The notes beneath the pieces were generated by a model. It did not search any database and was not told where the DNA came from. It saw only the letters and a program-made list of their open reading frames with translations. A stretch of 64,000 nucleotides of DNA from Thermoanaerobaculia bacterium (lineage in GTDB: Bacteria > Acidobacteriota > Thermoanaerobaculia > UBA5066). Both the position numbers and the translations under genes were made by a program. Numbering within the stretch: position 1 is the stretch's first letter; each line of letters opens with the position of its first letter. The DNA lies in assembly GCA_963821225.1 (NCBI GenBank), contig CAWGCY010000006.1, positions 275,217 through 339,216 of the forward strand, in the 5' to 3' direction. Shown one piece after another: positions 6,549 to 29,099 of this stretch.

Positions 6549-6872
6549 TCAATCCTCCAGGTCCTGCCGGAACGCCGGCTGTGCGGGATCCACGCGGCCG
6601 TCGGTGACCGAGGCGAGAAGACGCTCGTAAGCGCGTGTCGCCTCCGGAAGCGACGGGTAGCCGCGTTCCCGTTGCAGCGTCCCGCCACCCGAGTAGACGA
6701 GCGTGAAATAGCGGCCAGACGCGTACTCGAGCTCGATCAGGTCGGCCGGCCCGTCCGGATCGCCCTCTTGACCGAGTACGTCCATCAGGGCGACGGTCCA
6801 CCGTCGTCCCTTCGGATCTGTGACGATCTGGCGCTCGAGGTACTGCCAATCGTCCAGGTGCCAGGGCGGCAT
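6549..6872 (-). CDS. Hypothetical protein, 107 aa
   Basis: The composition is balanced and protein-like (MPPWHLDDWQYLERQIVTDPKGRRWTVALMDVLGQEGDPDGPADLIELEYASGRYFTLVYSGG...). The ATG lies 6 nt downstream of the response-regulator stop (TGA TCG ATG), so it is translationally coupled. It is the last gene of OFOR operon 1. Confidence 0.5.
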   Translation of the reverse strand: MPPWHLDDWQYLERQIVTDPKGRRWTVALMDVLGQEGDPDGPADLIELEYASGRYFTLVYSGGGTLQRERGYPSLPEATRAYERLLASVTDGRVDPAQPAFRQDLED

Positions 6873-6878
6873 CGATGA

Positions 6879-7286
6879 TCAGGGCCGGGTGACGGCGTGA
6901 TCCGGCGACAGGGAGGCCGAGAGCAGCTGGTCGAGCGCGCGTGCGACCTGCGCACCGGTGAACGGTTTCGGGATCAGGAGGACATGGTCGGCCTGCCGCG
7001 ATCGAAGGCTGGCGTCCGCGGCCTCCGGCGTATCGCTGATGATGACGACCGGAAGGTCGGCGCAAGCCGGCTCGCATCGCACCATGTCGAAGAGCGATTC
7101 GCTCATGTCGAAGGCGGAACAATCGAGGACGAGCGCGTCGGCGCGCTCCTCGACGACCCGCTCGCCGACCGCGACCGTGTAGCCGGTGGCGACGACCTCA
7201 TACCCGTGGTCGCGCAGCGCGAAGCTCAGAAGTTCGGCGATCTCGGGCGTGTCGTCGATGAGCAGAATGCGCCGCGGCGTTTTCAC
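6879..7286 (-). CDS. Stand-alone response-regulator receiver domain protein (CheY-like)
   Basis: VKTPRRILLIDDTPEIAELLSFALRDHGYEVV...ALVLDCSAFDMSESL...VVIISDT...LLIPKPF carries the canonical DD, D, T/S and K-P receiver residues. The GTG start overlaps the upstream stop (GTGA). The ORF-track N-terminal extension is an artefact. There is no output domain. Confidence 0.75.
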   Translation of the reverse strand: MKTPRRILLIDDTPEIAELLSFALRDHGYEVVATGYTVAVGERVVEERADALVLDCSAFDMSESLFDMVRCEPACADLPVVIISDTPEAADASLRSRQADHVLLIPKPFTGAQVARALDQLLSASLSPDHAVTRP

Positions 7287-7663
7287 TTCTTGCCGGAGCC
7301 GCTGCCCGGCAGGCGGTTCTTCTCTCCCGCGGACGGCTCCAGGTCGAACACCCACGACCGTCCGCCGGCCGTGTAGTAGGCGCGTCGATCGCTCTCGACC
7401 ATCGCGCCGAATGCCTCCAGCGTGCGCATGGCGAACGTGTAGCCCGCGAACTTGCCGCGCACGTGGTTCAGCACCTCGGTCGTGTGCCAATTCTCGGTGA
7501 GGAGGGCGTCGCCGGCATGGACGCTGAGGACGGTGTAGAAGCGATCGTGAGCGGCCTCGGCCCGCACCTCGCGCGTCGCGCCGCGCTTCTTTCCTTCGGT
7601 GACGATGTAGCTTTCCTGAACCACGGCGGCAGGCGGATGGGTCGTGTCACTCATGAGCTTCAC
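7283..7663 (-). CDS. Hypothetical protein, 126 aa
   Basis: MKLMSDTTHPPAAVVQESYIVTEGKKRGATREVRAEAAHDRFYTVLSVHAGDALLTENWHTTEVLNHVRGKF... It lies between the OFOR beta gene and the response regulator. Its stop overlaps the regulator's start. Confidence 0.5.
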   Translation of the reverse strand: MKLMSDTTHPPAAVVQESYIVTEGKKRGATREVRAEAAHDRFYTVLSVHAGDALLTENWHTTEVLNHVRGKFAGYTFAMRTLEAFGAMVESDRRAYYTAGGRSWVFDLEPSAGEKNRLPGSGSGKK

Positions 7664-7666
7664 GTC

Positions 7667-8731
7667 CTAGACGGTCTGCGCAACTTCGCTGGCCGCTTCC
7701 GCAGCCGCCATGTCGGTCAGGTTCTTCGCTTCGGCCGTTCTCAGCAGGACCTCCGGCAGCTCGACACCCATCATTTTCCACTGGGCGTTGGCAAACTTCT
7801 GCAGCGTCGCGATGTGCTCGGCGTGGAGGTGGCCGAAGCGCCCCTGCAGCTTCAGGTACTCGGATACCGGCCGCATGGTCTGCGGGCGGAAGGTGTAATC
7901 GAACTCGCGTTGCTGGGGATCCCATTCCCAGATGGGATACAGCCCGCATTCGACCACGAGGCGGCCGAGATCGATCGAGCGCGGCGTCTCGTACACGAAA
8001 CCCTTCTGGCACGGCGTGTAGATCATCATGAACGCCGCGCCTCTGTGGTTGAGCGCCTTGCGCACCTTGTTCATCAGGTCGATGGGGTAGCCCACGCTCG
8101 CGGTTGCCACGTAGCAGTGCGGGTGGCCGGCCGCCATCATCCGGGCAAGGTCCTTGGGGAACAGGGTCTTGGCCTCCGGGACCATTTTTCCCGGAGGCGA
8201 GAAGGTGGTCATGCCGCCGTAAGGCGTCCGGGAAGAAGCCTGGATGCCCGTGTTCGCGTACTGCTCGTTGTCGTAGCAGATGATCAGGCAGTCGTGATTC
8301 CGGTAGAGGGCGCCCGAGATCGACGCGAGCCCGATGTCGGACGCGCTGCCGTCGCCCGCTTCGCAGATGATGTTCGGAAACGGGCCCTTCCACTTGCCCT
8401 TGCGGATCATCGCCTCGTACGCGGCGGCAACGCCCGCGGTGAAGCTGCCCGAGCTGCCGATCTGCGTGTGCGCCCAGGGCACGTTGTAGGGCGTGCAGAG
8501 ATAGGAGCTGTTGGCGACGTACATGCAGCCGGTCGGTCCGACCAGGATCGTGTTGTCGCCCGCGGCCTTGCTCGTCATCCGGTACTGGATGGATGGCCCG
8601 CAGCCGGCGCACGTCCGGTGACCGGGGACGAAGGGCTCCGTCGCCGGCAGGTCGGGATTGTAGAAACGCGCCCCCTGGTTCGGGCTCCCGAACATCGGCA
8701 GGAACTGCCGCTCCACTTTGACCGCTGACAT
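7667..8731 (-). CDS. 2-oxoacid:ferredoxin oxidoreductase beta subunit (TPP-binding), cluster 1
   Basis: MSAVKVERQFLPMFGSPNQG...[11 protein letters not shown]...GDGSASDIGL...YDNEQYANTGIQ matches PorB/KorB/VorB. The true ATG is at 8731, with a GGAGGA RBS. The ORF-track upstream extension is spurious. Confidence 0.85.
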   Translation of the reverse strand: MSAVKVERQFLPMFGSPNQGARFYNPDLPATEPFVPGHRTCAGCGPSIQYRMTSKAAGDNTILVGPTGCMYVANSSYLCTPYNVPWAHTQIGSSGSFTAGVAAAYEAMIRKGKWKGPFPNIICEAGDGSASDIGLASISGALYRNHDCLIICYDNEQYANTGIQASSRTPYGGMTTFSPPGKMVPEAKTLFPKDLARMMAAGHPHCYVATASVGYPIDLMNKVRKALNHRGAAFMMIYTPCQKGFVYETPRSIDLGRLVVECGLYPIWEWDPQQREFDYTFRPQTMRPVSEYLKLQGRFGHLHAEHIATLQKFANAQWKMMGVELPEVLLRTAEAKNLTDMAAAEAASEVAQTV

Positions 8732-8745
8732 CCTGTCCTCCGATC

Positions 8746-9987
8746 CTATTCCTCGAATCCGACCCAGTGGGTGCGCTTCTCGATCTTCCCGCGCTTCTTC
8801 GCTTCGAGCATCTTCTGCGTCATCCAGTAGAACTCTTTCAGCACGATCGCCTCGCCGCCCATTCCGGCCATGAACGAAACGACCAGCGGTCGCTGCGCGC
8901 TCTCGTAGAGCGCCGCGCAGGCCTCGGCGTACAGCACTCCGCCGCTCGACACGCTGCCGAGCCCCATGTTGGTTTCGATGACGCCGACGACCGCGAACCT
9001 CGAGAGCACGTCCTTGACGCGATCCGTCGGGTAGGGCCGGATCGTCCTGAGCCGCACGAGGCCGACTTTCGCGCCGCGCTGCCGCATGTGCTGAATCGCG
9101 TAGCGTGCCGTCACGCCGTGGGCGCCCTGCAGGAAGAAAACGACCTCGGCGTCCCCGGTCATGTATTCCTCGATCCACGGGTCGTACCGGCGCCCGAAGA
9201 TCCGGGCGAACTCCTCGTGCGCCTGCTCGATGACCGGCACGGCGCCTTCCATCGCGCGGGCCCGTTCGAGCTGCAGCGGCGGACCTTGCTCCGGCATGAT
9301 CTGCGGGCCGTGCGAGACGGGACGCCGCGGATCGAGCGGGTACGGATGCCTGTAGTCCGGCAGGAACTCCCTAACCTGGCCCGTGTCGGGCAGCTCGACG
9401 TCGGTCGTGATGTGCGAGACGAAGAACCCGTCCTGGCACACCATCTGCGGAAGGAGCACGCGCGGATCCTCGCCGATCCGGTAGCCGAGCAGATGATTGT
9501 CGAACGCTTCCTGCGCGTCGCACGCCCAGCCCATGAGCCAGCCCATGTCGCGCGTCGAGAGCGCGTCCGTGTGCTCGGACCCGAAATCGCCCGGCGGATC
9601 GAGCGTGCGATCGGCGATCATCATCTGCACGGGCATCCGCGTACCCGAGATCGGCGAATAGAGCTCGTACGCGAACTGCACGCCGACGCCCGAGCTGCCG
9701 GTGAACACGCGCGCCCCGCTCGAGGAGGCGCCGTGCGCGATGCTCAGCTGCGAGTGCTCGCTGTCCGCCACGATGTACTCGGCATCCAGCTCGCCGTTGG
9801 CCACCATCTGCGCGAGCGCGATCATCGTCGCCGTGTAGGGCCGGATCGGATAGGCCGTGATCACGTCGACGTCGGCGTACTTGGCGGCCTGCGCCGCCGC
9901 GACGCAGCCGTTGATCCGGACCTTCTTCTTCTGCATCACCGCGGTCGTCACGTGGGGCTTCTTCTTCGGTTCCACTGCGGTCGACAT
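8746..9987 (-). CDS. 2-oxoacid:ferredoxin oxidoreductase alpha subunit, cluster 1
   Basis: MSTAVEPKKKPHVTTAVMQKKKVRINGCVAAAQAAKYADVDVITAYPIRPYTA...GSSGVGV...DRTLDPPGDFGSEHTD is the PorA/KorA family. ATG at 9987. Confidence 0.85.
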   Translation of the reverse strand: MSTAVEPKKKPHVTTAVMQKKKVRINGCVAAAQAAKYADVDVITAYPIRPYTATMIALAQMVANGELDAEYIVADSEHSQLSIAHGASSSGARVFTGSSGVGVQFAYELYSPISGTRMPVQMMIADRTLDPPGDFGSEHTDALSTRDMGWLMGWACDAQEAFDNHLLGYRIGEDPRVLLPQMVCQDGFFVSHITTDVELPDTGQVREFLPDYRHPYPLDPRRPVSHGPQIMPEQGPPLQLERARAMEGAVPVIEQAHEEFARIFGRRYDPWIEEYMTGDAEVVFFLQGAHGVTARYAIQHMRQRGAKVGLVRLRTIRPYPTDRVKDVLSRFAVVGVIETNMGLGSVSSGGVLYAEACAALYESAQRPLVVSFMAGMGGEAIVLKEFYWMTQKMLEAKKRGKIEKRTHWVGFEE

Positions 9988-10001: not shown

Positions 10002-11846
10002 CTATTTCCAGTTCTCGATGTTCTTGGCCGGACGATCCGGCAGGTTCTTCAGCTCCTCGGCCTGCCGCCCGTGCAGCCCCGGCGTGATCGCGAACGCCGT
10101 GTCCATGCGGACGACGCCCGTGTCGAAGTCCATCTCGGGCACGCTCTCGAGGCAGCCCGTCGGACACTCCTCGATGCAGACGCGGCAGCCCTTGCAGTAG
10201 TCGGTGAGGATCCTGTAGAGGCCGTTCGACCGCACGGAGCGCACGATGCACGGTTCTGGACAGACCAGGTAGCAGTTGTCGCACGCGTTGCAGGTGCCGC
10301 AGCTGAAACAGCGACTGGCCTCCTCCGTCACCTGCTCCCTCGTGAACGCCTGAATGACCTCCTCCTGCGTGCGGCGCCGGTGAGCCGTCGGCAGCATCTG
10401 CTGCTGCACGCGAGGCCACTTCGGGAAATACGTCATGTTCATCCGTTCGAGGTCCGTGATGACGTCCGTCGCGACGACGCGCTCCTGCAGCGGCTCGCCC
10501 CGGAGCACCCTGTCGAGGCTGAACGCCACGCGTTTGCCGTCGCCCACGGCGTTCACGACCATCAGCGGCTGACCGGTGCCGGCCTGTGCGATGTCGCCGG
10601 CGGCGAAGAACATCGTGTCGCCGAGACGTCCGAACCGGTCGATCCTGATCGTGCCGCGCTCGTTCTTGAACTCGGCCGGCAGCCACGCGAGGGATGCATG
10701 CTGTCCCACGGCGATGATCACGTTGTCGACCTCGAAGCGCTCGGCCGGAGAGCCGCGATCGACGGCAATCGGCGAGGCGTTGACCGCGCCGGTGAAGCGC
10801 GCCGGATGGAGCTCGAGCGCCTCGATCCGTCCGTTGCCGAGCGCGGCGGTCATGGCCCGCCCGTGCATCAGCTCGACGCCTTCCGCGAGCATGTCGTGCA
10901 GGTCCTCCGGCACACACGGCATCTCGTCGGGACCGCCCTCGACGGTGATCATCGTCACGTCTTCGGCGCCTTGGCGAAGCGCTTCGCGGGCGCAGTCGAT
11001 GGCCGTGTTGCCGCCGCCGATTACGGCCACTCGCGAGCCCAGCTTCACATTCGACGTCCCCATGCCGATGTCGCGCAGGAAGGGCAGACCATAGAGGACG
11101 CCGTCCTTGTCTTCACCTTCCGCGCGCACGCTGTTCGGCTCCGTGAGACCGACCGCCAGGACGCAGGCGTCGTAGTTCTTTTTCAGGTCGTCCCAGGTAA
11201 CGTCTTTGCCCACTTCCGTTTTCGTCTTGATCGTGATGCCGAGCTCGACGAGGCGTTCGATCTCGCGATCGAGCACGTTCTGCGGGAGCACCCAGTCGGG
11301 AATGCCGCCGCGATTGAGGCCGCCGGGCTTCGGCGACTTCTCCAGAATCGTGACCTCGTAGCCGAGGCGCGCGAGCTGGTACGCCGCGCTGTGCCCGGCG
11401 GGCCCCGATCCGACGACGGCGACCTTCTTCCCGTTCGGCGCGCCGGCTTTCACGACGTCGCGCGGCAGGGACTGCCCGAGGTCGCCGAGAAACCGCTCGA
11501 CGGCGCGGATGGAGATCGCCTCGTCGTACTGTCCGCGATTGCAGGCCTGCTCGCACGGGTGGTAGCACACGCGGCCGGTCACGGACGGGAACGGCATGTC
11601 TTCCTTGATGAGCGCGTAGGCGTCGAGGTACTTGCCGCGCTTCACCAGGTCCAGGTAGCCCTGGATCTTTTCGTTGGTGCCGCACGCATTGTTGCAGGGC
11701 GGCATCTTGTCCCGGTACACGGGCCGCGTCGAGCGCCAGTTGCCCGTCGGAAACAGGTCCTGGCCTTTTTCCTGCGACGGCGCCGGTGTGATCCCGGCAA
11801 ACGGCACCGCCAGCCAATCGGGGATATGAGTACCTTTGGTCGACAT
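10002..11846 (-). CDS. Fusion protein: GltD-like NAD(P)H-dependent FAD oxidoreductase (N-terminal Fe-S + FAD/NAD(P) Rossmann domains) fused to PorD-type 2x[4Fe-4S] ferredoxin delta subunit
   Basis: The N-terminus carries CNNACGTNEKIQGYLDLVKRGKYLDAYALIKEDMPFPSVTGRVCYHPCEQAC, the GltD iron-sulfur motif. VAVVGSGPAGHSAAYQLARLGYEVTILEK and VAVIGGGNTAIDCAREALRQG are dinucleotide-binding motifs. The C-terminus carries CFSCGTCNACDNCYLVCPEP...CKGCRVCIEECPTGC, two CxxCxxCxxxCP motifs. ATG at 11846. Confidence 0.8.
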   Translation of the reverse strand: MSTKGTHIPDWLAVPFAGITPAPSQEKGQDLFPTGNWRSTRPVYRDKMPPCNNACGTNEKIQGYLDLVKRGKYLDAYALIKEDMPFPSVTGRVCYHPCEQACNRGQYDEAISIRAVERFLGDLGQSLPRDVVKAGAPNGKKVAVVGSGPAGHSAAYQLARLGYEVTILEKSPKPGGLNRGGIPDWVLPQNVLDREIERLVELGITIKTKTEVGKDVTWDDLKKNYDACVLAVGLTEPNSVRAEGEDKDGVLYGLPFLRDIGMGTSNVKLGSRVAVIGGGNTAIDCAREALRQGAEDVTMITVEGGPDEMPCVPEDLHDMLAEGVELMHGRAMTAALGNGRIEALELHPARFTGAVNASPIAVDRGSPAERFEVDNVIIAVGQHASLAWLPAEFKNERGTIRIDRFGRLGDTMFFAAGDIAQAGTGQPLMVVNAVGDGKRVAFSLDRVLRGEPLQERVVATDVITDLERMNMTYFPKWPRVQQQMLPTAHRRRTQEEVIQAFTREQVTEEASRCFSCGTCNACDNCYLVCPEPCIVRSVRSNGLYRILTDYCKGCRVCIEECPTGCLESVPEMDFDTGVVRMDTAFAITPGLHGRQAEELKNLPDRPAKNIENWK

Positions 11847-11866: not shown

Positions 11867-12514
11867 TCAAGCCACCGCTTTTCCGAGCGGCATGATGTGT
11901 AACTGGTCGAGCGCGGCGTGGAACGCTCTTTTGTTCGTGAGCATGGGCTCGATCGACTCGATCTTGACGATGCCCGTCGTCTTGACGATCGCGGCGATGA
12001 TCGGGGCCGCGATGTCGGGCGCGATCGAGGTGCTGCGTTCCGCCGCGCCCTCGGTCGACAGCCGATCGAGGCCGAGCTCGCCCAGCCGGTAGTACAACCA
12101 CTTGTGGTGGGCGATGTGCGCGGCATCGACGCACACCAACTGGGCGAGCCGTTCGGGACCAGGCACGAAGCGGATCATGTACTCGGGCGTGTAATGCGTG
12201 TTGATCACGAGCGTGCCGCCGGGCGGCATCCCGCGCATGTAATCCCAGCCTTTGACCATCGTCTGTTCGACGAGCACCACGATGTTCGGCTGCTCGTTCT
12301 CGTAGGTGAGCTCGTTTTCGAGCACGCTCTCGCTCAGGCGGCAGTACTTGCGGGTCGGCGCGTTGGTGCGATCGGGATTGTCGACGTAGTTCTCCATCGC
12401 CTGCGCGAACTTGCCCTCGAGCCGTCCGGCGGCGGCGACCGAATTGACGATGTCGCGGCCTTCCTTGTCCATGATGATGCCGCGCGTCCACACGGTGAGC
12501 TCGGTGTAACTCAT
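11867..12514 (-). CDS. 2-oxoacid:ferredoxin oxidoreductase gamma subunit, cluster 1
   Basis: MSYTELTVWTRGIIMDKEGRDIVNSVAAAG... is homologous to the cluster-2 gamma subunit. ATG at 12514 with an AGGGGGA RBS. The start overlaps the upstream stop (ATGA). Confidence 0.8.
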   Translation of the reverse strand: MSYTELTVWTRGIIMDKEGRDIVNSVAAAGRLEGKFAQAMENYVDNPDRTNAPTRKYCRLSESVLENELTYENEQPNIVVLVEQTMVKGWDYMRGMPPGGTLVINTHYTPEYMIRFVPGPERLAQLVCVDAAHIAHHKWLYYRLGELGLDRLSTEGAAERSTSIAPDIAAPIIAAIVKTTGIVKIESIEPMLTNKRAFHAALDQLHIMPLGKAVA

Positions 12515-12852
12515 GTCGGGTCCCCCTGAAACCGGCTCTGGACGTGCCGGACGAAGCGCTCGAAGACGTCTGCGAGCTTCTGCCGCTCGGGATGGTCCGG
12601 CGGCTCGGCGGCGATTGCGACCTGGGTTCGTTCCTGGCCCGCCTCGATCAGCCGGATCGTGCCCAGGTTGGTGTGCTCGATCGCCCATCCGTCTCTCTTG
12701 ACGGCAGTGACCGCCATGCTCAGCGTCTTGCCGTCGCTCTCCCAGGGCACGACGATCGCGGCGACGTGGCCCTGGACACGGGCGTCCTCCTCGATCGCGC
12801 GGGACACGGCCTGCGGAGATCCGGTGGCGGTGAACGTGAGGAACTCGCCCAT
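12511..12852 (-). CDS. Hypothetical protein, 113 aa, first gene of OFOR operon 1
   Basis: MGEFLTFTATGSPQAVSRAIEEDARVQGHVAAIVVPWESDGKTLSMAVTAVKRDGWAIEHTNLGTIRLIEAGQ... ATG at 12852 preceded by GGAGG. It overlaps the gamma start by 4 nt. Confidence 0.45.
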   Translation of the reverse strand: MGEFLTFTATGSPQAVSRAIEEDARVQGHVAAIVVPWESDGKTLSMAVTAVKRDGWAIEHTNLGTIRLIEAGQERTQVAIAAEPPDHPERQKLADVFERFVRHVQSRFQGDPT

Positions 12853-12860
12853 GCCCGCGT

Positions 12861-13691
12861 TTGCCTCCGTGTTACACTGGACCAGTGGTCGAACCACTTA
12901 GGCGCGCGATCCTGACATCCGGGCGCCGTGGTGTCAAGCGACCGGGCGCCCTCCGGCGGCCGTCAGGCGCCCGCGACTCCAGCCTGATCGAACCGATCAG
13001 AAAGACGCGGGTGGCCGAGGACATCGCGGACCGCATCCGTGTGCTGATTCTCGACGGCACCTTCCCCGCGGGCCAGGCGCTGCCCGCCGAACGCGCGCTC
13101 GCAGAATGGTTCGGCGTCAGCCGCGGGTCGATCCGCGACGCGTTCCGTACGCTGGAGACCATCGGCCTGCTCGTCACGCGCCACGGCCAGGGCACGTTTC
13201 CTCAGGAGCTCGACATCAACCGGCTCGTCGCGCCGCTGGCTTCCGTCCTCAGCTACCACTATGAACTGCAGGACGAGCTGCTGGACGTGCGCCGCATCTT
13301 CGAACCGGCCGTCGCGCGCGTCGCGGCCACGCGCGTCACCGACGAGGACATCGCCGACCTGGAGCGGATCCTCGAGGCGCAGCGCAGGAAGCTCAAGACC
13401 GGCCGATCGACCATCGCCGAGGTCACGGCCTTTCACCACGTCGTCGCGCGCGCGACGCGCAATCGCGTCGTCGTCAGCATCATGGCCACGCTGAACGATC
13501 TCCTCGTGGAATCGCGCAAGCGAAGGCTGAAGCAGAAGGGACACCCGCACCGATCCATCCTCGGTCACGAGGCGGTCGTCGCGGCATTGCGGCAGCGTGA
13601 CGGCGCCGCCGCGGCGGAAGCCATGCGCGGGCATCTCGATCAGATCGCCGACTTCCTCCGGCACGCACCGACGCTCGTTCGTCATGGATGA
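12861..13691 (+). CDS. FadR/GntR-family transcriptional regulator (paralog 1); start uncertain (TTG 12861, GTG 12885 or GTG 13011)
   Basis: SLIEPIRKTRVAEDIADRIRVLILDGTFPAGQALPAERALAEWFGVSRGSIRDAFRTLETIGLL is a winged-HTH GntR N-domain followed by an FCD-like C-domain. It is about 85% identical to the regulator at 28263-29033. Confidence 0.8.
   Translation: MPPCYTGPVVEPLRRAILTSGRRGVKRPGALRRPSGARDSSLIEPIRKTRVAEDIADRIRVLILDGTFPAGQALPAERALAEWFGVSRGSIRDAFRTLETIGLLVTRHGQGTFPQELDINRLVAPLASVLSYHYELQDELLDVRRIFEPAVARVAATRVTDEDIADLERILEAQRRKLKTGRSTIAEVTAFHHVVARATRNRVVVSIMATLNDLLVESRKRRLKQKGHPHRSILGHEAVVAALRQRDGAAAAEAMRGHLDQIADFLRHAPTLVRHG
12875..12898. promoter_or_regulatory. Bipartite palindromic operator-like motif CACTGGaCCAGTGGTCGAACCACT (FadR-type TGGTC...ACCA half-sites) between divergent hyp113/OFOR operon and GntR-1
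   Basis: It contains the perfect inverted repeats CACTGG-a-CCAGTG and AGTGGT-cga-ACCACT. A near-identical motif occurs upstream of OFOR cluster 2 (28161-28182). Confidence 0.4.
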
Positions 13692-20412: not shown

Positions 20413-21366
20413 CTACAGGTTCTTTGCCTCGTTTTTCTTCATGCCCTTCCAGCAGGCGGAGATCGCGGCTCTCAGGGAACTTTTCGCCTCAGAAAGATCC
20501 ATGGGTCGGTATCCAAGGAGTTCCCGGGCGGCTGCGTCCGACAGCTCCCAGGGGTCCGCCAGGAAGGCGCTTCCGGTCCACTCCTCCCTGGGAACGCACC
20601 GGATCTCCGAGCGCGATCCGGTCGCATCCCTGACCATTTCCGCAACTTCTTCCCAGGTGACATAGAGCGTGGAGAGATTGAACGTCCGACCGAATGCCTT
20701 CGGATTTCCGAGACACAGGTCCAGTCCTTTCGCAAGGTCCTCCATGTGGAGGAAGCTGCCTCCGGAATCTCCGGGAACCTCCAGCGGATCGCCCGCAGCG
20801 GCGATCCGAAGCATCTCCCGGAGATGTTTCCCCCCGATTTCCTTCCCGAAGGCCCACCAGAACCGGAGGACGGTGGCCGGAGGCCCCTTCGTCTTCCCGT
20901 ACATGAGGCAGAGCTTCTCGGCTGCAGCCTTGGCGATCCCGTAGAGGGGCTTCCTCGCCTCGTCCACCATGAGGGGATGTTTTTCATCGACGGGGGAGTA
21001 TCCCGGCTTCCCGTATACCACCGCGGTGCTCGCGTAGACCATGTGTCCGACCTTCTGGGAAGCGGCCTCCTCCAGGAGGTAGAGATGGCCTTTCAGGTCG
21101 TGCTCGAGCACCTCGAGGGGATCCTCGGAAAAGGACCAGGCCAGGTGGACTACGGCGTCAACCCCCTCGACGGCCGACTTCAAGATTCTCCTGTCCTCGA
21201 TCCCCGCCTGGACAAGCGTCAGATTCTCGTCTTCCATCGCCCGGAGGGGCCCCACGTTCCTGTCGATCACCCGGACCGCGTGACCGCGCGCAAGCAGCCA
21301 GGCGGTCACGTATCTCCCGCACGATCCCGCCCCCCCGGTGATGAGGATCCTGCTTCCCGCTTTCAT
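20413..21366 (-). CDS. NAD-dependent epimerase/dehydratase family protein (extended SDR)
   Basis: ILITGGAGSCGRYVTAWLLARGHAVRVIDR is a Rossmann motif. YASTAVVYG...Y...K matches the catalytic motif. It lies downstream of tctA on the same strand. Confidence 0.8.
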   Translation of the reverse strand: MKAGSRILITGGAGSCGRYVTAWLLARGHAVRVIDRNVGPLRAMEDENLTLVQAGIEDRRILKSAVEGVDAVVHLAWSFSEDPLEVLEHDLKGHLYLLEEAASQKVGHMVYASTAVVYGKPGYSPVDEKHPLMVDEARKPLYGIAKAAAEKLCLMYGKTKGPPATVLRFWWAFGKEIGGKHLREMLRIAAAGDPLEVPGDSGGSFLHMEDLAKGLDLCLGNPKAFGRTFNLSTLYVTWEEVAEMVRDATGSRSEIRCVPREEWTGSAFLADPWELSDAAARELLGYRPMDLSEAKSSLRAAISACWKGMKKNEAKNL

Positions 21367-21412
21367 GGCAGTCTGGATTCCCGGCTGACCCGCGCCCGAG
21401 AAATCCCTTCCT

Positions 21413-22921
21413 TCAGGCCGGCCCTGCGCTCGGCCGTTTCTTCTTGAAGAGCGGCTGGATGGTGGGCAAGAAGAAGATGATGATCGCCGCGATCATGATC
21501 GGCAACGCGATGGGAGGCTTGAAGAAGATCAGGGGGTTGCCGTGTCCCATGATGAGGGCCTGCCTCATCGCCGCCTCGGCCATGTCTCCAAGGACGAGAG
21601 CCAACACCATCGGCGCAAGGGGATAGTCGAGCTTCTTGAAGACGTATCCGAGCACGCCGAAGATGATCATGTAATAGATGTCGATCATCCGGTTGTTCAC
21701 GGCGTAGGCGCCGATGGCACAGACGTACACGATCGCAGGCATCAGGACCGCGAACCGGATCTTCAGAACCGCGGCGAACAGGGGAGTGAAGGCCAGGACG
21801 ATGAAGAGGCCGATGAAGTTCCCCACCCAGCAGCTTCCGATGAGGCCCCAGACGAAGTCCGCGTGCTCCTTGAACAGCATCGGCCCCGGCAGGAGTCCGA
21901 AGATCATGAGGCCGCCCATGATGACGGCCATCGTCGGCGATCCCGGGATTCCAAGGGTGATCATGGGAAGCGTTGCTGAGGTTCCCGCGGCGTGGGCCGC
22001 GGCTTCGGGGGCGATGATTCCGGCCGAAGCCCCCTGCCCGAATTCATCCTTGTTCTTGGCGGCCTGTTTGGCGAAACCGTACGCCATGAAGGAAGCCGGC
22101 GTCGCGCCTCCGGGCTTGAGACCCATCCAGCATCCGACCGCCGCTCCCATGACGACAGTCTTCCAGTGCACGATGAGTGCCTTCGAACCTTCCGCGATAT
22201 CCTTCAACGTCACCTTCGCGGTGATCCCTTCCATCTTGAGGCCTTCCTCGACCGTGAGAAAGATTTCCCCCAGGCCGAACAGGCCGATGACGGCGACGAT
22301 GAAGTTGAACCCTCCCATCAATTCGACGGACCCGAAGGTCATCCGGAGCTGTCCGGTCACGATGTCCATCCCGACCGCCGCCAGGATGAAGCCGAAGAAG
22401 ATGGAAATGAGGGTTTTTGTGGGGGACTTCCCTCCCAGCCCCACGAACGCGCTGAACGTGAGCATCATCACGGAGAAGATCTCGGCCGGGCCGAACTTCA
22501 GGGCGAACTCCGCGATGATCGGTGCGAAGAAGCTCAGCATGATGATCCCGAATACCGCTCCCACGCCATGGGACAAGAACGCCATCACGAGCGCTTTCCC
22601 CGCCTTCCCCTTTTTTGCCAGGGGGTAACCGTCGAAGGTGGTTGCCACCGACCACGGCTCTCCGGGTATGTTGAAGAGTATCGAGGTGATGCTCCCCCCG
22701 TAGAGCGCTCCCCAGTAGATGCTCGACAACAGGATGATGCCCGGCACGGGACTCATCGTCACCGTCAGGGGGATGAGGATGGCCACCCCGTTTGCTCCGC
22801 CAAGGCCGGGCAGGACGCCGACGATCACCCCGAGAACCAGCCCGATCATCGCGATCATGAAATTCCCCGGCTGGATCGCGATGCTTATGCCCGCTAACAG
22901 ATGATGGAGATTCTCGACCAC
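21413..22921 (-). CDS. tctA: Tripartite tricarboxylate transporter permease TctA
   Basis: 502-aa polytopic membrane protein. LPGLGGANGVAILIPLT...GSITSILFNIPGE is typical of the TctA family. Confidence 0.85.
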   Translation of the reverse strand: MVENLHHLLAGISIAIQPGNFMIAMIGLVLGVIVGVLPGLGGANGVAILIPLTVTMSPVPGIILLSSIYWGALYGGSITSILFNIPGEPWSVATTFDGYPLAKKGKAGKALVMAFLSHGVGAVFGIIMLSFFAPIIAEFALKFGPAEIFSVMMLTFSAFVGLGGKSPTKTLISIFFGFILAAVGMDIVTGQLRMTFGSVELMGGFNFIVAVIGLFGLGEIFLTVEEGLKMEGITAKVTLKDIAEGSKALIVHWKTVVMGAAVGCWMGLKPGGATPASFMAYGFAKQAAKNKDEFGQGASAGIIAPEAAAHAAGTSATLPMITLGIPGSPTMAVIMGGLMIFGLLPGPMLFKEHADFVWGLIGSCWVGNFIGLFIVLAFTPLFAAVLKIRFAVLMPAIVYVCAIGAYAVNNRMIDIYYMIIFGVLGYVFKKLDYPLAPMVLALVLGDMAEAAMRQALIMGHGNPLIFFKPPIALPIMIAAIIIFFLPTIQPLFKKKRPSAGPA

Positions 22922-22939
22922 GTTGTTCTCGCTCCGCTT

Positions 22940-23521
22940 TCAGAAGGGGATCAGTTTGCTGCCCCACAATCCCGTCGGCAATGGAATGAGGAACAATTTG
23001 TCAAACACGACGAAAAGGGAAGCCGGAAGGAGGATGCTCACGAGGATCACCGTGACCCAGTGAATCTTCCCCACCGCCCGCATGTAGAACGCAAGGAATG
23101 TCGCGGCCGCGATGTGAAGGCCGACGAATTCCGTGAGGATCACCATCCCGGCCGACGGGAGCAACACCCATAGGATCGGCTTGAGCCCTCCTTCCGGGAT
23201 CAGACGGCCCTTCCCGGCGATCCGCCTGGCCTCGGCCTCCAAGAGGCGCACCCGCTCCTCGGGGACGCCACCCGCCGTCGTGACGACGACGCGCCGAATC
23301 CTCTCCATGGCGGCTTCGAGGTTCTCGGGTGTGGGCTCCTTGAACGCCTTGGTCAGGACGACTGCGCTGCAGATCAGCGTGCCCACCCCGAGATAGAAAG
23401 GGAAGAAGCCGGACTCGGGACCGCTCGGCCCCCATCCAAAGCGAAGCCGGACCGCGTCGACGATGACGATGATCGCGATCGCGATGAAGAAAAAGGCGAC
23501 GACGATCTGAGCCTTCCGCAT
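22940..23521 (-). CDS. tctB: Tripartite tricarboxylate transporter small subunit TctB
   Basis: 193 aa with 4 TM helices, located between tctC and tctA. Confidence 0.7.
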   Translation of the reverse strand: MRKAQIVVAFFFIAIAIIVIVDAVRLRFGWGPSGPESGFFPFYLGVGTLICSAVVLTKAFKEPTPENLEAAMERIRRVVVTTAGGVPEERVRLLEAEARRIAGKGRLIPEGGLKPILWVLLPSAGMVILTEFVGLHIAAATFLAFYMRAVGKIHWVTVILVSILLPASLFVVFDKLFLIPLPTGLWGSKLIPF

Positions 23522-23634
23522 CTTCCCTCCCCGTCCGAACCATCATGAAAAACAGCCGGACGATGAAGAAGGCGGGCCAGCCCGCCCTCCCCTCGTCCGG
23601 CGCTCTTTCTGGATTACTGAAATCAAAGGCCTTG

Positions 23635-24624
23635 TTACTTGATGAATCCACCCTTTTTCATGAGGTCCTGCGTCGTTTTGTCCTTCTCTTCCAACCATTT
23701 CACGTATTCCGGACCGGTCAGGTATGCATCCTTGAGCCCCATGTCGGACGTGTACTTCTTCCACTCGGGAGTCTCGGAGACCTTCTTGAAAACCCCGGCA
23801 TAGAACTCCTGTTGTTCCTTGGTGATGCCGGGCGCTGCAAAGAAGCCGCGAAGCATCAGGTAGCTCATGTCCTTGCCGGTCGCTTCCTTCACGGTGGGAA
23901 TCGCCTTCCAATCGGGCAGATTGATTCGCTCATGGTCGATCGTCGCCAGGGGGCGCAATCTCCCGGCCTTCCATTGGCTCACGGCCTCAGCCGGGTTGTT
24001 CACCGTGGAATCGATGTGCTTGCCGACGAGTTCCACGGCCACTTCTCCTCCGCCTTTGAACGGCACGTAGGAGAACTTCACGCCGAATATCTGCTCGAAC
24101 ATGACCGTGATGATCTGGTCCTCCTGCTTCGAGCCGGTGCCGCCCATGTTGAATTTTCCCGGCGCCTTCTTGACCGCATCGAGGTACTCCTGGGCAGTCT
24201 TGTACGGAGATTCGGCGTTCACCCAGAGGACGAAATAGTCGAGCGCAAGGCGCGAGACCGGGGTGAGGTCCTTCCAGCTGAAGGGCACGCCCGTCGCCAA
24301 TGGGGTCGTGAACACGTTGTCCAACGTGATGATGATGACGTTCGGATCGCCCTTCTTGCCCTTCACATACATGAAGCCTTCCGCTCCGGCGCCGCCGGAC
24401 TTGTTCACGACGATGAAAGGCTTCGGGGACAATTTGTACTTCTCGATGAGAGGTGAAGCGAACCGGGCGAGGACGTCGGCACCGCCGCCGGCGCCCGCCG
24501 GAACGATCAGCTCGACGGGCCTGTCCGGCTGCCACGCGTTCGCCGTGCCGGCCGATAAGAGAAGCAAAGCCAGGGAACAAACGAAGATCGTGCCGATCCT
24601 CGCTCGCGAAATCGGTCTACTCAT
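23635..24624 (-). CDS. tctC: Tripartite tricarboxylate transporter substrate-binding protein TctC (Bug family)
   Basis: Signal peptide followed by WQPDRPVELIVPAGAGGGADVLARFASPLIEKYKLSPKPFIVVNKSGGAGAEG, typical of Bug/TctC. GGGGAGGA RBS. Confidence 0.85.
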   Translation of the reverse strand: MSRPISRARIGTIFVCSLALLLLSAGTANAWQPDRPVELIVPAGAGGGADVLARFASPLIEKYKLSPKPFIVVNKSGGAGAEGFMYVKGKKGDPNVIIITLDNVFTTPLATGVPFSWKDLTPVSRLALDYFVLWVNAESPYKTAQEYLDAVKKAPGKFNMGGTGSKQEDQIITVMFEQIFGVKFSYVPFKGGGEVAVELVGKHIDSTVNNPAEAVSQWKAGRLRPLATIDHERINLPDWKAIPTVKEATGKDMSYLMLRGFFAAPGITKEQQEFYAGVFKKVSETPEWKKYTSDMGLKDAYLTGPEYVKWLEEKDKTTQDLMKKGGFIK

Positions 24625-24736
24625 GGTGCTGTCCTCCCCATGTTAAAAAACGTTTCCGTGTATCTGAGCAACGCCTCTTCTTGTTCGTTCCTCGCCCGGA
24701 CCTGTTCCAGAGTATCCTCTTCGCCTTCACGCCGGC

Positions 24737-25759
<1,023 letters not shown>

Positions 25760-26941
25760 CTACATTCCGAGCCAGTAGACGTATCGGTCGGTCCGTTTTT
25801 CCTTGACCATCTTCGTGAGAACTCCCGCCATGTAATCGAAGTCGGCGGGCCAGATGGTCTCGCCGCCAAGGCCGCCCATGAAGGACGTGACGAGAGGACG
25901 CTTATCCAGGTCATAGAGGCTGGCCCTGAGCTCGTGAATGAGGTTGCCGCCTCGCATGGCCGATCCGTAGGAGGTGCTGGTCTCGATGACGCCGACAGCC
26001 TTGACATGGCCGAGCGCCTCGGCGAGCTGATGGGTAGGCCATGGGCGGACCCAGCGCAGCCGGGCCAGGCCGGCCTTGACGCCTTCCTTACGGAGCTTGT
26101 CGACGGCCGTCCGGGCGGTGTTGGAATGAGCGCCCATGATGAAGAACGCGATCTCCGCGTCCTCGAGCTTGTACTGCTCGACGAACGGGTCGTACTTGCG
26201 TCCGAAGATGCGCCCGAAATCCGCCGTCGCCTCCTCGATGACCTTGGGAACCGCGAGGAACGTCTGGGCGCGCATCGCATCCATCGGAGCGCCCTGGTCG
26301 GGGCGGATCTGCGGACCGTGGGAAACCGGGTTGGTCAGGCTCAGGGGGTGGATCGGCCGGTAGGGAGGCAGGAACTCCTTCACCTGTGAGGCTTCTCCGA
26401 TGGTGACCTTGTCCGGAATGTGGGAGATGAAATAGCCGTCCTGGCAAACCATCTGGGGCAGCATCACGCGGTGGTCTTCGCCGATGCGGTAGGCCATCAG
26501 GGTGTTGTCGTAGACCTCCTGCGGAGTGGCGGCCCAGCCGAGAAGCCAGCCCTGGTCGCGGGTCGACATCGCGTCCGTGTGCTCGGAGCCGAAATCGCCC
26601 GGCGGGTCGAGCGTACGGTCGGCAATCGACATCTGAACGGGGTACCGGCCGCCGGCCATGGGGCTGTAGACCTCCATGGCATACGTCACGCCGACGCCCG
26701 AGCTTCCCGTATAAGCGCGGGCACCCGCAGCGGAGGCGCCGAGGACGACCGACACCTGCGCGTGCTCACCCTCGCCGTGGATGAACTCCGCGTTCAGCTC
26801 GCCGTTGGCGACCATCTTCGCGAGCTCCATCATGATCGCCGTGTAGGGACGGATGGGATAGGAACAGATCACTTCGACCTCGGCCGCCTTCGCGCCCTCT
26901 GCGGCTGCGCGGCAACCGGTCATCATGCTTTCTTTTGCCAT
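25760..26941 (-). CDS. 2-oxoacid:ferredoxin oxidoreductase alpha subunit, cluster 2
   Basis: VICSYPIRPYTAIMMELAKMVANGELNAEFIHGEGEHAQ...DRTLDPPGDFGSEHTD. Paralog of 8746-9987. Confidence 0.85.
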   Translation of the reverse strand: MAKESMMTGCRAAAEGAKAAEVEVICSYPIRPYTAIMMELAKMVANGELNAEFIHGEGEHAQVSVVLGASAAGARAYTGSSGVGVTYAMEVYSPMAGGRYPVQMSIADRTLDPPGDFGSEHTDAMSTRDQGWLLGWAATPQEVYDNTLMAYRIGEDHRVMLPQMVCQDGYFISHIPDKVTIGEASQVKEFLPPYRPIHPLSLTNPVSHGPQIRPDQGAPMDAMRAQTFLAVPKVIEEATADFGRIFGRKYDPFVEQYKLEDAEIAFFIMGAHSNTARTAVDKLRKEGVKAGLARLRWVRPWPTHQLAEALGHVKAVGVIETSTSYGSAMRGGNLIHELRASLYDLDKRPLVTSFMGGLGGETIWPADFDYMAGVLTKMVKEKRTDRYVYWLGM

Positions 26942-26953
26942 AGCGTTCTCCTT

Positions 26954-27328
26954 TTAGAAGGGTTTCTCCAACCGAACCACGCCACCCTCGAAATCGAGCT
27001 CGGGCACCGCGACGAGCGCTCCTTCCTCGGGGCACTGCGCGATGCAGACCTGGCAGCCCTTGCAGAAGTCGCCGACCCACTCCAGGGTGTCGTCCTGCTC
27101 CTTGTAGACCCAGCAGGCGTCCGGGCAGGCCATATAGCATTGCAGGCAGCGCGTGCATTTCTCCTCGTCCCTGACGGGGCGGACGACCCGCCAGTTCGAT
27201 GTCTGAAACAACGGCTGCGTCCCTACGGGGGCGGGGGTCACGGCGCCGAACGGCACGACGCGATCCTTGGGAACGTCTATGGTCCCGTAGCTGGGGAGCT
27301 TCTTCGCCATGATCTCCTCCTTGTTCAT
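26954..27328 (-). CDS. 2-oxoacid:ferredoxin oxidoreductase delta subunit (2x[4Fe-4S] ferredoxin), cluster 2
   Basis: 124 aa. CTRCLQCYMACPDAC...CKGCQVCIAQCPE. Its start overlaps the gamma stop. Confidence 0.8.
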   Translation of the reverse strand: MNKEEIMAKKLPSYGTIDVPKDRVVPFGAVTPAPVGTQPLFQTSNWRVVRPVRDEEKCTRCLQCYMACPDACWVYKEQDDTLEWVGDFCKGCQVCIAQCPEEGALVAVPELDFEGGVVRLEKPF

Positions 27329-27993
27329 TTGTGATGTTTGCTGCCGGCGGTGGCGGTGACCAGCTCGGGGGCGGTGCGCGATGGCGCGTCGAAGCGCTTG
27401 ATCTTCACCTCTTTGAAGCCCCGTTCCATGCCGGAGACGTCGCTGACGACCTTCGCCAGGTGTTCCTTCTTGATCAAGCCCGTGACCTTCGCGATGGCGC
27501 CGACGATGGGAGCCGCAATGCCCTTTCCGATGCCGGTCGCGTCGACGCCGCCCTCGGAGCCGGAGAAATCGACCGTCCGGACACCGGTGATGGCGTCCGC
27601 GTCGACCGTGGCGACCGTGCCGAGCAGGCTGGCATTCGGGATGAATTTCAGCATGTCGTCGATCGAGCGGTTGGTATTGATGATGAGGGTGCCGCCGGGC
27701 TCCATGCCCCTCAGGATGTCGATGCCCTTGACGATCGTCGCCTCACAGATGACGACCACTTCCGGCTTGTCGTTCGTGTAGACGTACTTGTGAGTGATCT
27801 CTTCGTCGCTGAGTCGGACGTATTTCCGGACGGTCACGAGCACGCGGTCCGGCAGGTCTTCGTAGTTGTCGAATGCCTGCGCGTGCTTGCCGTCCATCTG
27901 GGCGGCCTTCGCAAAGAGGTTGATGACGTCCCGACCCTCTTTGTCCATGAGGACGCCTCGCGCCCAAACCGTAATTTCGTGTACCTTTGCCAT
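27325..27993 (-). CDS. 2-oxoacid:ferredoxin oxidoreductase gamma subunit, cluster 2
   Basis: MAKVHEITVWARGVLMDKEGRDVINLFAKAAQ... ATG at 27993 with a perfect AAGGAGGTG RBS. The ORF-track GTG at 27999 is less likely. Confidence 0.8.
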   Translation of the reverse strand: MAKVHEITVWARGVLMDKEGRDVINLFAKAAQMDGKHAQAFDNYEDLPDRVLVTVRKYVRLSDEEITHKYVYTNDKPEVVVICEATIVKGIDILRGMEPGGTLIINTNRSIDDMLKFIPNASLLGTVATVDADAITGVRTVDFSGSEGGVDATGIGKGIAAPIVGAIAKVTGLIKKEHLAKVVSDVSGMERGFKEVKIKRFDAPSRTAPELVTATAGSKHHK

Positions 27994-28142
27994 AGACACC
28001 TCCTTAATCGCCGGGAAAATGGGAGCGGACTCGTTTCGAGCTTTCGTGACGAAAGGCGACCTCCTGGGACCGGAACGGTGACGGCCCCGCGGACCGCCGT
28101 CGCCTGGAGGCAGCCAAGTGCTTGATACGACGATGCTTAAAG

Positions 28143-28182
28143 CTAAGACACATCCGTCTTAGTGGTTCGACCATTGGACCAA
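28143..28182. promoter_or_regulatory. Operator-like region upstream of OFOR operon 2: hairpin CTAAGAC-acatcc-GTCTTAG followed by AGTGGTTCGACCATTGGaCCAAATG (homologous to 12875-12898 in reverse orientation)
   Basis: Reverse complement CATTTGGTCCAATGGTCGAACCACTA aligns with CACTGGACCAGTGGTCGAACCACTT from cluster 1. The 14-bp core matches at 13 of 14 positions. Confidence 0.4.
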
Positions 28183-28262
28183 ATGTAGAGCGTCCGGCCG
28201 CTCGGAGATATGACGCGAATGAATCAGTTAGCGGGCGACCGAAAGGCTGGCGGCGCCGCTCG

Positions 28263-29033: not shown

Positions 29034-29052
29034 TCGCTTCAGTCTAGGATCC

Positions 29053-29094
29053 AGCCGCTCACAAGAAATGAGGCGAATGTATCAGTGAGCGGCT
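29053..29094 (-). terminator. Stem-loop AGCCGCTCAC-(22 nt)-GTGAGCGGCT 6 nt downstream of the CDC48-like gene stop
   Basis: Perfect 10-bp inverted repeat. There is no U-tract, which is common in high-GC genomes. Confidence 0.3.
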
Positions 29095-29099
29095 AGGCT

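Follow-up and report, generated by a model that had tools for sequence, protein, structure and literature searches.

The window analyzed here, 64,000 nt of contig CAWGCY010000006.1 from a Thermoanaerobaculia bacterium (assembly GCA_963821225.1, forward-strand positions 275,217 to 339,216), carries on its minus strand an operon for an enzyme of the 2-oxoacid:ferredoxin oxidoreductase (OFOR) type. Its core genes encode, in this order, a gamma subunit (OFOR domain III, 215 aa, 11867..12514), a 614-aa fusion protein (10002..11846), an alpha subunit (domains I-II, 413 aa, 8746..9987) and a beta subunit (domain VI, with thiamine pyrophosphate, TPP, and one [4Fe-4S] cluster; 354 aa, 7667..8731). Architecture and operon context agree with a preliminary description of this DNA. 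The array is tight, with spacings of 14-20 nt: the gamma stop codon is followed after 20 nt by the ATG of the fusion gene, at 11846, and the stop codon of the fusion gene lies 14 nt before the alpha start. The fusion protein is the subject of this analysis. Profile and structure matches of its single open reading frame (ORF) and of an AlphaFold2 model identify it as an OFOR delta subunit that carries an inserted Fe-S flavoprotein resembling NfnB and DsrL.

The ORF comprises 614 codons plus stop and zero internal stops. A stop codon between the domains, named beforehand as the observation that would speak against a fusion, occurs neither in this gene nor in any relative. Pfam recovered all three of the domain types that the preliminary description had named for checking, namely Fer4_20 at residues 47-123 (64.7 bits; cutoff, 25.8), Pyr_redox_2 at residues 140-437 (104.2 bits; cutoff, 26.1) and Fer4/Fer4_7/Fer4_21 at residues 518-567, the last confirming that a single 614-aa protein carries a C-terminal ferredoxin module with two CxxCxxCxxxCP motifs. 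Among NCBIfam models, NF009410 (PRK12771, "NAD(P)-binding protein"), whose architecture is identical to that of the fusion, was a near miss at 504 bits (cutoff, 516; profile positions 28-564 of 566), followed by several models of the GltD family. The N-terminal part had been described as a GltD/SudA-type unit; GltD and NfnB profiles do match it and the Rossmann motifs are present, but it resembles NfnB, StnC and DsrL more closely than GltD or SudA.

Relatives of the fusion are abundant. The best 120 protein clusters are 85-94% identical to it and 603-614 aa long, more than 120 clusters at this level of identity agree with it in length (610-614 aa), and a scan of species representatives, one genome each, located relatives at 417 places, the best 80 of which are 84-90% identical. 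The fusion protein itself gave no hit when looked up by exact sequence. Synteny was counted by tblastn over 86 related loci, in which most absences fall at contig ends. Since same-length clusters and syntenic loci are this numerous, the fusion is genuine, and an artefact of sequencing, frameshift or assembly could be ruled out. The hosts are mostly Acidobacteriota (Vicinamibacterales, Terriglobales, Acidoferrales and Bryobacteraceae) and include some Eremiobacterota and others. Each of the best 80 of the 417 loci (80/80) lies in a metagenome-assembled genome, none in a genome from an isolate. Identities of 84-90% in hosts so distant are unusually high, which suggests strong constraint or recent horizontal spread. 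The Fe-S domain of the fusion is 99% conserved across loci L007-L086, which span different acidobacterial classes and Eremiobacterota genomes. One 465-aa "unfused" relative (P0121, 68% identity) ends in unrelated low-complexity sequence and is most likely a frameshifted gene call and no naturally split form.

The fusion protein begins as a delta subunit does. Residues 7-46 (VPFAGxTPAP...TGNWRxxRPV; 11709..11828) align to the N-terminal arms of three deltas, the free delta encoded elsewhere in the window, the delta of Moorella oxalate oxidoreductase (OOR) and an actinobacterial delta, with z = 10-13 and 0/500 shuffles reaching the score, and the motif TGxWRxxRP is conserved in the wider family. 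The arm and the ferredoxin core of delta are thus both kept in the fusion but set apart by an insertion. The arm is followed by an NfnB-type Fe-S domain (residues 47-123, 11478..11708), which matches only positions 28-107 of the Fer4_20 profile. Alignment to the PDB sequence of Thermotoga maritima NfnB pairs C51, C55, C94, C98, C102 and E117 of the fusion with NfnB C47, C51, C90, C96, C100 and E117. In NfnB, C51, C90, C96 and E117 ligate the proximal cluster, and the distal cluster has C47 and C100 among its four ligands (PMC7596348). On this basis, C55, C94, C98 and E117 of the fusion are assigned to a predicted proximal cluster and C51 and C102 to a distal one. The N-terminal domain therefore holds counterparts of six of the eight NfnB-type ligands; the alignment gave no counterpart at the N-terminus of the fusion for the other two, NfnB C39 and C42.

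Counterparts of these two residues were found at the other end of the flavoprotein. The FAD and NAD(H) Rossmann domains (residues 124-450, 10497..11477), with the motifs GSGPAG at 146-151 and GGGNTA at 277-282 and the residues V186, E303 and V312 discussed below, are followed by a linker and a helix that alignments to NfnB and Fer4_20 identify as the displaced "N-terminal" helix of GltD (residues 451-516, 10299..10496), ending in C513xxC516. Residues 489-525 (RRRTQEEVIQAFTREQVTEEASRC513FSC516GTC...) align to NfnB 15-51 (RRRNFEEVALGYTLEEALEEAQRC39LQC42...) with z = 10 and 0/2000 shuffles reaching the score, and still with z = 8 when the cysteine region is left out, while the fusion's own N-terminus scores only at background against the same NfnB segment. 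Likewise, Fer4_20 profile positions 2-36 match fusion residues 490-524. Both cysteines are invariant or nearly so, and the segment 451-516 is modelled confidently. C513 and C516 are therefore candidates for the two missing ligands of the distal cluster, the equivalents of NfnB C39 and C42.

The ferredoxin core of delta (OFOR domain V, 2x[4Fe-4S]; residues 517-575, 10122..10298) comes directly after, with the motifs C519xxC522xxC525xxxC529P and C551xxC554xxC557xxxC561P. Residues 517-571 are matched by the NCBIfam models PorD_KorD and PorD_Arch and by the C-terminus of Moorella OOR delta (residues 260-313), and the core is 46% identical to the free delta of the window. The match to the PorD/KorD model TIGR02179 reaches 43.3 bits, below its cutoff of 60.05, and covers profile positions 26-77 only; on the NCBIfam OOR delta model the C-terminus of the fusion scores 51 bits. 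A C-terminal tail (residues 576-614, 10002..10121), modelled with a pLDDT of 36-63, is 82% conserved in the clade and absent from free delta subunits. Over the whole protein, 15/15 cysteines as well as E117 show little or no variation, both among 113 diverse family representatives and among 121 close relatives, and these residues would suffice for four [4Fe-4S] clusters.

The AlphaFold2 model agrees with this anatomy (mean pLDDT, 86; pTM, 0.83; linker, 72-95) and is poor only at residues 1-31 and 573-594. In Foldseek comparisons it aligned over about 600 columns to StnC (8oh5_C) and to the Bfu-type NfnA (9n5u_A and 9bov_A), with TM scores of 0.71-0.73, and over about 435 columns only to NfnB or GltD. 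Because the N-arm of delta lies at 7-46 and the helix with its CxxC at 489-516, the flavoprotein (about 470 aa) is, judging from the alignments and the model, inserted between the N-arm and the ferredoxin core in circularly permuted order, as in StnC and Bfu-NfnA. These two findings led us to reject the plain attachment of a free delta to the C-terminus of GltD, an insertion being the better fit, and the flavoprotein, which had been placed in front of the delta module, lies instead inside it. Such a topology would bring the two chain ends of the insert together at the distal cluster, immediately next to the first cluster of delta.

The genes on either side of the fusion identify its partner. 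In the PDB, the best match of alpha is Moorella OOR 5c4i_A (E = 1.8e-152; the next, a pyruvate:ferredoxin oxidoreductase or PFOR, 5.8e-68), that of beta is 5c4i_C (4.2e-114; next, a PFOR, 1.4e-59), and that of gamma, which Pfam assigns to the POR family, is residues 14-202 of 5c4i_B, the N-terminal half of Moorella OOR delta (1.6e-42; next, PorC 2raa_A, 2.2e-07). The gap to the second match is thus 50-85 orders of magnitude for alpha and beta and about 35 for gamma. Alpha scores 580 bits on the NCBIfam equivalog model for OOR alpha, above the cutoff of 500. Enzymes for pyruvate, 2-oxoglutarate, 2-oxoisovalerate and indolepyruvate were rejected as alternatives, their models scoring far lower. 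OOR binds oxalate through Arg31 in a unique YPIRP motif, which replaces the Thr of YPITP, and through Arg109 and Asp116 in a "plug" loop (PMC5020499, section 7), Asp116 and Phe117 forming the "plug/switch" of the alpha subunit (PMC5020499). The alpha subunit of the window has YPIRP at residue 46, and its ADRTLDPPGDFG loop, which holds the Arg109/Asp116 pair, is identical to that of Moorella; YPIRPYT and ADRTLDPPGDFG are identical in 82/82 fusion-linked alphas, in the second alpha of the window (alpha2) and in Moorella.

The frame of the operon is also that of known OOR loci. At the Moorella locus (L087), the gene order is GntR/FCD regulator, CDC48-like ATPase (733 aa), delta (315 aa, domains III + V), alpha, beta and transporter, and Caldinitratiruptor (L088) has the same arrangement. 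An actinobacterial locus (L089) has CDC48, gamma (208 aa), a free delta (94 aa), alpha, beta and a transporter of the major facilitator superfamily. The region for domains III and V thus comes in three versions: fused, as in Moorella; split into gamma and free delta, as in the actinobacterium and in a second cluster of the window; and gamma with a delta that carries an insert. As a Moorella-type frame recurs around these variants, the operon of the window can be read as an OOR operon with the third version. Of the 86 loci, 85 have gamma near the fusion, 82 alpha, 79 beta, 80 the GntR regulator and 70 the CDC48-like ATPase; the Moorella-type frame is present around the fusion in 70-80/86. We infer from these matches that the OFOR of the window is an orthologue of oxalate oxidoreductase, with oxalate as its probable substrate.

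The second OOR-type cluster of the window (20413..31244, minus strand) is of the ferredoxin type. It comprises genes for a CDC48-like ATPase (29100-31244), a GntR/FCD regulator (28263-29033), gamma (27325-27999; 242 bits on the model for the N-terminal half of OOR delta, cutoff 230), a free delta (26954-27328), alpha2 (25760-26941; 562 bits on the OOR alpha model, cutoff 500, with YPIRP present), beta2 (24737-25723; 553 bits on the OOR beta model), a TctCBA carboxylate transporter (21413-24624) and an epimerase-like protein (20413-21366), the last two assigned by family match. Its free delta, already recognized in the preliminary description, is genuine and 124 aa long by ORF and alignment. 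The alpha subunits of the two clusters are 55% identical. As this second cluster is complete, the genome holds both ferredoxin-type and flavoprotein-type OOR paralogues.

The sites for nucleotide and flavin were compared with those of characterised relatives. In the alignment to the PDB sequence of NfnB, the YRR motif, which holds the 2'-phosphate of NADPH (PMC7596348), falls on V302-E303-G304 of the fusion. E303 is invariant in 121/121 close relatives and comes after strand 296-300 of the model, the second strand in the second Rossmann unit; Y-R-R is kept by most of the wider family. A preference for NAD(H) is classically signalled by an acidic residue at this site. The replacement of YRR by V-E-G with an invariant Glu thus favours NAD(H) over NADP(H) as the predicted substrate of the fusion. 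The arginine hydrogen-bonded to flavin N5 in the bifurcating NfnB (R201 as cited for NfnB, R239 in StnC) is replaced by V186 (codon 11289-11291), which is invariant in 121/121 close relatives, and the nearest outlier (P0122) has His at this position. R333 of Pf NfnI corresponds to V312, and the fusion operon contains no nfnA gene. The features of a bifurcating NfnB, that is, the N5 arginine, Arg333, YRR, an extended N-terminus and an upstream nfnA, are therefore missing from the fusion. By published criteria for bifurcating and non-bifurcating sites (PMC12221290, section 14; PMC10482914; also PMC7596348), V186, V312, V-E-G and the lack of nfnA argue against bifurcation, and the flavin site is probably non-bifurcating.

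Several known systems resemble parts of this enzyme. Moorella thermoacetica OOR (PDB 5c4i, 5exd and 5exe) is the closest solved homologue of alpha, beta and domain III and shares with the fusion loci YPIRP, the Arg109/Asp116 loop, the order delta-alpha-beta and, in relatives, the flanking GntR/FCD and CDC48-like genes. Its delta, however, is one chain of domains III and V that passes electrons to soluble ferredoxin, whereas in the window domain III is separate and domain V carries the insertion of about 470 aa; its host is an acetogenic Firmicute, whereas the fusion hosts are soil Acidobacteriota. For the flavoprotein, the best matches in both sequence and fold are StnC and the Bfu-type NfnA, which have the same permuted GltD unit from PPC to EAxRCxxCG with further [4Fe-4S] clusters after it. 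The FAD of these proteins is non-bifurcating and feeds a linear chain of clusters (PMC10482914, PMC12018979). In StnC, the GltD-like region comprises residues 102-565 with two [4Fe-4S] clusters, and cryo-electron microscopy revealed the path FAD-C7-C6-C5 (PMC10482914). Unlike the fusion, StnC and Bfu-NfnA are NADPH-oxidising entry modules of transhydrogenases, with a NuoG/FdhF-like scaffold and HydBC-like partners; a Lys ligates their proximal cluster where the fusion has Glu, and they keep YRR and the arginine. NfnB and proteins of the CAC0764 type share with the fusion the fold, the proximal ligands (three Cys and Glu) and the FAD and dinucleotide motifs, and the stand-alone CAC0764 type catalyzes simple transfer from ferredoxin to NADP+ with no bifurcation (PMC12221290). 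They use a free, diffusible ferredoxin, are NADP specific (YRR) and have the CxxC at the N-terminus, whereas the fusion has a covalently attached OFOR ferredoxin and the permuted order.

DsrL, a characterised NAD(P)H:acceptor oxidoreductase serving the sulfite reductase DsrAB (PMC7596348), has the domain order of the fusion: Fe-S, FAD with embedded NAD(P) domain, linker and C-terminal 2x[4Fe-4S] (PMC7596348). The logic is alike, a pyridine-nucleotide module docked to an Fe-S enzyme, the partner being DsrAB in one case and an OFOR in the other. The fusion differs in having neither YRR nor the flavin-proximal Arg and in being flanked by OFOR gamma, alpha and beta; genes linked to subunits of pyruvate or ketoisovalerate:ferredoxin oxidoreductases were left out of the DsrL study (PMC7596348, section 14).

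That an OFOR core can reduce a pyridine nucleotide by way of an added flavoprotein has a functional precedent in phenylglyoxylate:NAD+ oxidoreductase PadEFGHI (EC 1.2.1.58), whose subunits are labelled "NADH-dependent" in NCBIfam. Pyruvate:NADP+ oxidoreductase of Euglena and Cryptosporidium, likewise an OFOR core with an added flavoprotein, is a further functional precedent, in which a C-terminal FMN/FAD domain of the cytochrome P450 reductase type provides an unrelated solution. The Pad enzyme has five subunits, including PadF, a delta of about 100 aa (bioRxiv 10.64898/2026.01.30.702948); its delta and flavoprotein are separate, unlike those of the fusion. A Pad-type enzyme was rejected for the window on scores of 44.7 versus 300 bits for gamma, 247 versus 700 for alpha and 174 versus 700 for beta against the NCBIfam cutoffs for PadE, PadG and PadI. 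The five-subunit pyruvate and 2-oxoglutarate oxidoreductases of Hydrogenobacter and Nitrospira are OFORs with an extra subunit in oxygen-exposed organisms that still use ferredoxin; this type was rejected too, as the extra subunit has no known cofactor motif (PMC3578206, section 15) and is not a flavoprotein.

The module is not confined to OOR. Family representatives at 35-45% identity have the architecture of the fusion, and in three variants (P0143, P0148 and P0230) gamma, insert and delta form one chain of about 755 aa. The module also follows a chain resembling indolepyruvate oxidoreductase alpha (POR_N + PFOR_II + TPP_C) in proteins of about 1100 aa (P0162 and P0168), and a dihydroorotate dehydrogenase-like domain (P0237; L112, 166-2772). 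Searching metagenomes with distant members turned up full-length relatives (X) in OFOR operons L090-L092, L099, L107, L114 and L123, in the order gamma-X-alpha-beta or gamma-alpha-beta-X. At locus L093 (3614-7686), a DsrL-like gene lies directly after dsrAB-like genes; its product, with 40% identity to a family representative, has in common with the OFOR-linked proteins both the RCxSCGxC junction and a remnant of the N-arm of delta (GESWKCPVY...PPC), which suggests a common origin of DsrL and the deltas with insert. These occurrences beside dsrAB-like genes and on a dihydroorotate dehydrogenase-like domain refute the notion that all relatives of 550-600 aa are OFOR deltas; together with those in OFOR operons, they mark the module as a reusable device for coupling to NAD(P).

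We consider it probable, with moderate confidence, that the operon encodes an OOR-type TPP/Fe-S enzyme which gained an NfnB/DsrL-like flavoprotein in the interior of its delta subunit and which acts as a wire from oxalate to NADH. Decarboxylation of oxalate would take place on TPP in the alpha/beta active site, in the manner of Moorella OOR and without coenzyme A (CoA). The two electrons would leave singly through the [4Fe-4S] cluster of beta and both clusters in the ferredoxin core of delta, and would then pass, in place of soluble ferredoxin, to the adjoining distal cluster of the insert (C51, C102, C513 and C516). From there they would reach the proximal cluster (C55, C94, C98 and E117) and the FAD, which would gather two electrons and reduce NAD+ by hydride transfer. 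The net reaction would be oxalate + NAD+ -> 2 CO2 + NADH, with no bifurcation, ferredoxin or CoA. A direct path from the TPP site to NAD(P)+ had been proposed in the preliminary description; the architecture, the operon and the conservation of all needed ligands support this, and the direction and continuity of the electron flow are what we infer from them. The same description also envisaged that NAD(P)H might drive a reductive carboxylation. As the CO2/oxalate couple lies far below NAD+/NADH in potential, NADH-driven fixation of CO2 to oxalate is thermodynamically implausible and this proposal very unlikely for such a substrate.

Some observations weigh against an oxalate-to-NADH wire. Beta (436 bits; cutoff, 590) and the split gamma (175 bits; cutoff, 230) fall below the NCBIfam cutoffs for OOR, and alpha is 58% identical to that of Moorella, from the only characterised OOR, so that specificity could have shifted. 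The prediction of NAD over NADP draws on one motif. Delivering electrons of very low potential to NAD+ is wasteful, so that a second, coupled acceptor is conceivable. The change from Arg to Val at flavin N5 is also unusual, as 109/113 family representatives keep Arg at this site and StnC R239A is almost inactive (PMC10482914), and the flavin chemistry may therefore depart from this simple picture.

Three other readings were weighed against these data. The wire could be as proposed but run on a different small 2-oxoacid (glyoxylate, oxamate, mesoxalate or pyruvate, for example), with the alpha1 clade as a specificity variant of OOR. Alpha1, the alpha of the fusion operon, forms its own clade (among the 120 alphas most similar to Moorella alpha, none is closest to alpha1) and is only 55-58% identical to alpha2 and Moorella alpha; beta1 scores below beta2 on the OOR beta model (436 versus 553 bits), and the presence of a second OOR-type cluster with its own transporter means that the paralogues may have diverged in function. 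Set against this, the oxalate motifs are identical wherever they were compared, as noted above, the operon frame is that of Moorella OOR, and the 80% identity between the GntR regulators of the first and second clusters suggests an effector in common. We regard another substrate as unlikely. The insert could also be something other than the main exit for electrons, either bifurcating or confurcating between NAD(H) and an external ferredoxin or flavodoxin, or passing electrons from NAD(P)H inward, so that in hosts exposed to oxygen the clusters stay reduced or the enzyme is reactivated. The CO2/oxalate couple is low enough for ferredoxin and NAD+ to be reduced together, the closest structural relatives of the module belong to bifurcating complexes, the Glu ligand of NfnB is retained at the proximal cluster, and the clade-specific Val at flavin N5 points to a remodelled flavin site; the CDC48-like ATPase and three proteins without family that are conserved with the operon hint at extra steps. 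The homologous FAD of StnC and Bfu-NfnA is, however, explicitly non-bifurcating (PMC10482914, PMC12018979), the N5 arginine, Arg333, long N-terminus and nfnA neighbour expected of bifurcation are missing (PMC12221290), and the conserved operon encodes no second flavin or NfnA-like subunit. This role for the insert appears rather improbable to us.

It is, finally, very improbable that the fusion is an ordinary DsrL- or GltD-like NAD(P)H oxidoreductase that merely adjoins OFOR genes and serves another partner. The NCBIfam family is named no more than "NAD(P)-binding protein", and the same module does occur beside dsrAB-like genes (L093) and on a dihydroorotate dehydrogenase-like domain (L112 and P0237). 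Here, however, it stands in the position of delta in an operon that encodes no other, and it retains both the N-arm and the ferredoxin core of that subunit. The gene spacings of 14-20 nt, the co-occurrence of gamma, fusion, alpha and beta in 79-85/86 loci and the versions with gamma fused in front (P0143, P0148 and P0230) likewise tie it to the OFOR. The oxalate-to-NADH wire remains the reading that we favor.

Further genes accompany the operon. On the minus strand, gamma is preceded by a gene for a conserved 128-aa protein (12511..12897), whose stop codon overlaps the gamma start by 4 nt, and beta is followed by genes for a conserved 126-aa protein (7283..7663; after beta in 76/86 loci), a single-domain response-regulator receiver of 136 aa (~6879..7289, start codon provisional; Pfam Response_reg; 71/86 loci) and a conserved 107-aa protein (6549..6872; 71/86 loci). 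The 126-, 107- and 128-aa proteins have no Pfam or NCBIfam family match, and the receiver carries the canonical D/D/S/K residues. The trio after beta, found in 71-76/86 flavoprotein-type loci, is missing at those of Moorella, Caldinitratiruptor and the actinobacterium. A homologue of the 128-aa protein is present in 32/86 loci, where it stands between the GntR and CDC48-like genes. Divergently oriented on the plus strand lies the GntR/FCD regulator gene (12933..13691, start inferred from its paralogue), whose product is the one 80% identical to the regulator of the second cluster.

The CDC48-like double-AAA ATPase gene lies directly upstream of gamma in 70/86 loci; the fusion operon of the window has the GntR gene and no adjacent CDC48. 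Copies upstream of OOR genes are found at L001 (7154-9328), in Moorella (L087, 4670-6871), Caldinitratiruptor (L088, 4810-7002) and the actinobacterium (L089, 4791-6893), and in the second cluster of the window, and are 48-53% identical across the Moorella, Caldinitratiruptor, actinobacterial and acidobacterial-type groups. A role of this ATPase in maturation or reactivation of the enzyme is a possibility. Genes for a pyruvate phosphate dikinase and a malic enzyme flank the two OOR clusters of the window (14601-17339 and 31560-33290, both on the plus strand). A pyruvate phosphate dikinase-type gene also lies near the Caldinitratiruptor OOR locus, and a malate synthase G gene adjoins the operon in L001-L002 (L001, 15378-17525), with a weaker 65% match in L022.

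The literature searched treats OOR as a ferredoxin-dependent enzyme of the OFOR family, with structure and mechanism known from one acetogen (PMC5020499, PMC10699278), and our literature searches found nothing on an NAD-linked OOR or on OOR in Acidobacteria. They also found no biochemical characterisation of such fusion enzymes, the sole notice being the DsrL study that excluded such genes (PMC7596348). Surveys of oxalotrophy count the frc/oxc/oxlT route (PMC10192776), and OOR was not considered in a recent one. Both constituent kinds of protein were thus already known; what appears new is the combination of an OOR with a DsrL/NfnB-like module, with a function predicted from sequence. We advance tentatively, as possible but somewhat short of an even prospect, the wider proposal that a ferredoxin- and CoA-independent oxalate:NAD+ oxidoreductase is a widespread, unrecognised route for oxalate in soil Acidobacteriota and neighbouring phyla, and that it exemplifies a general splicing rule by which a permuted NfnB-like flavoprotein enters the ferredoxin modules of OFOR delta, DsrL and StnC/Bfu-NfnA.

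In soil, oxalate is one of the major exudates of plants and fungi, and the oxalate-carbonate pathway is driven by microbes that oxidise it; Acidobacteriota are a leading soil phylum. If the proposal is true, abundant soil bacteria would use oxalate directly as a respiratory electron donor, through a one-enzyme route from oxalate to NADH that is present at hundreds of places in genomes and has been missed by surveys based on gene markers. The enzyme would also provide a compact, CoA-free, NAD-linked decarboxylating module of biotechnological interest and an example of an OFOR uncoupled from ferredoxin for life with a respiratory chain. Its anatomy, insertion with permutation, ties OFOR delta, DsrL and the StnC/NfnA family into one evolutionary scheme of construction.

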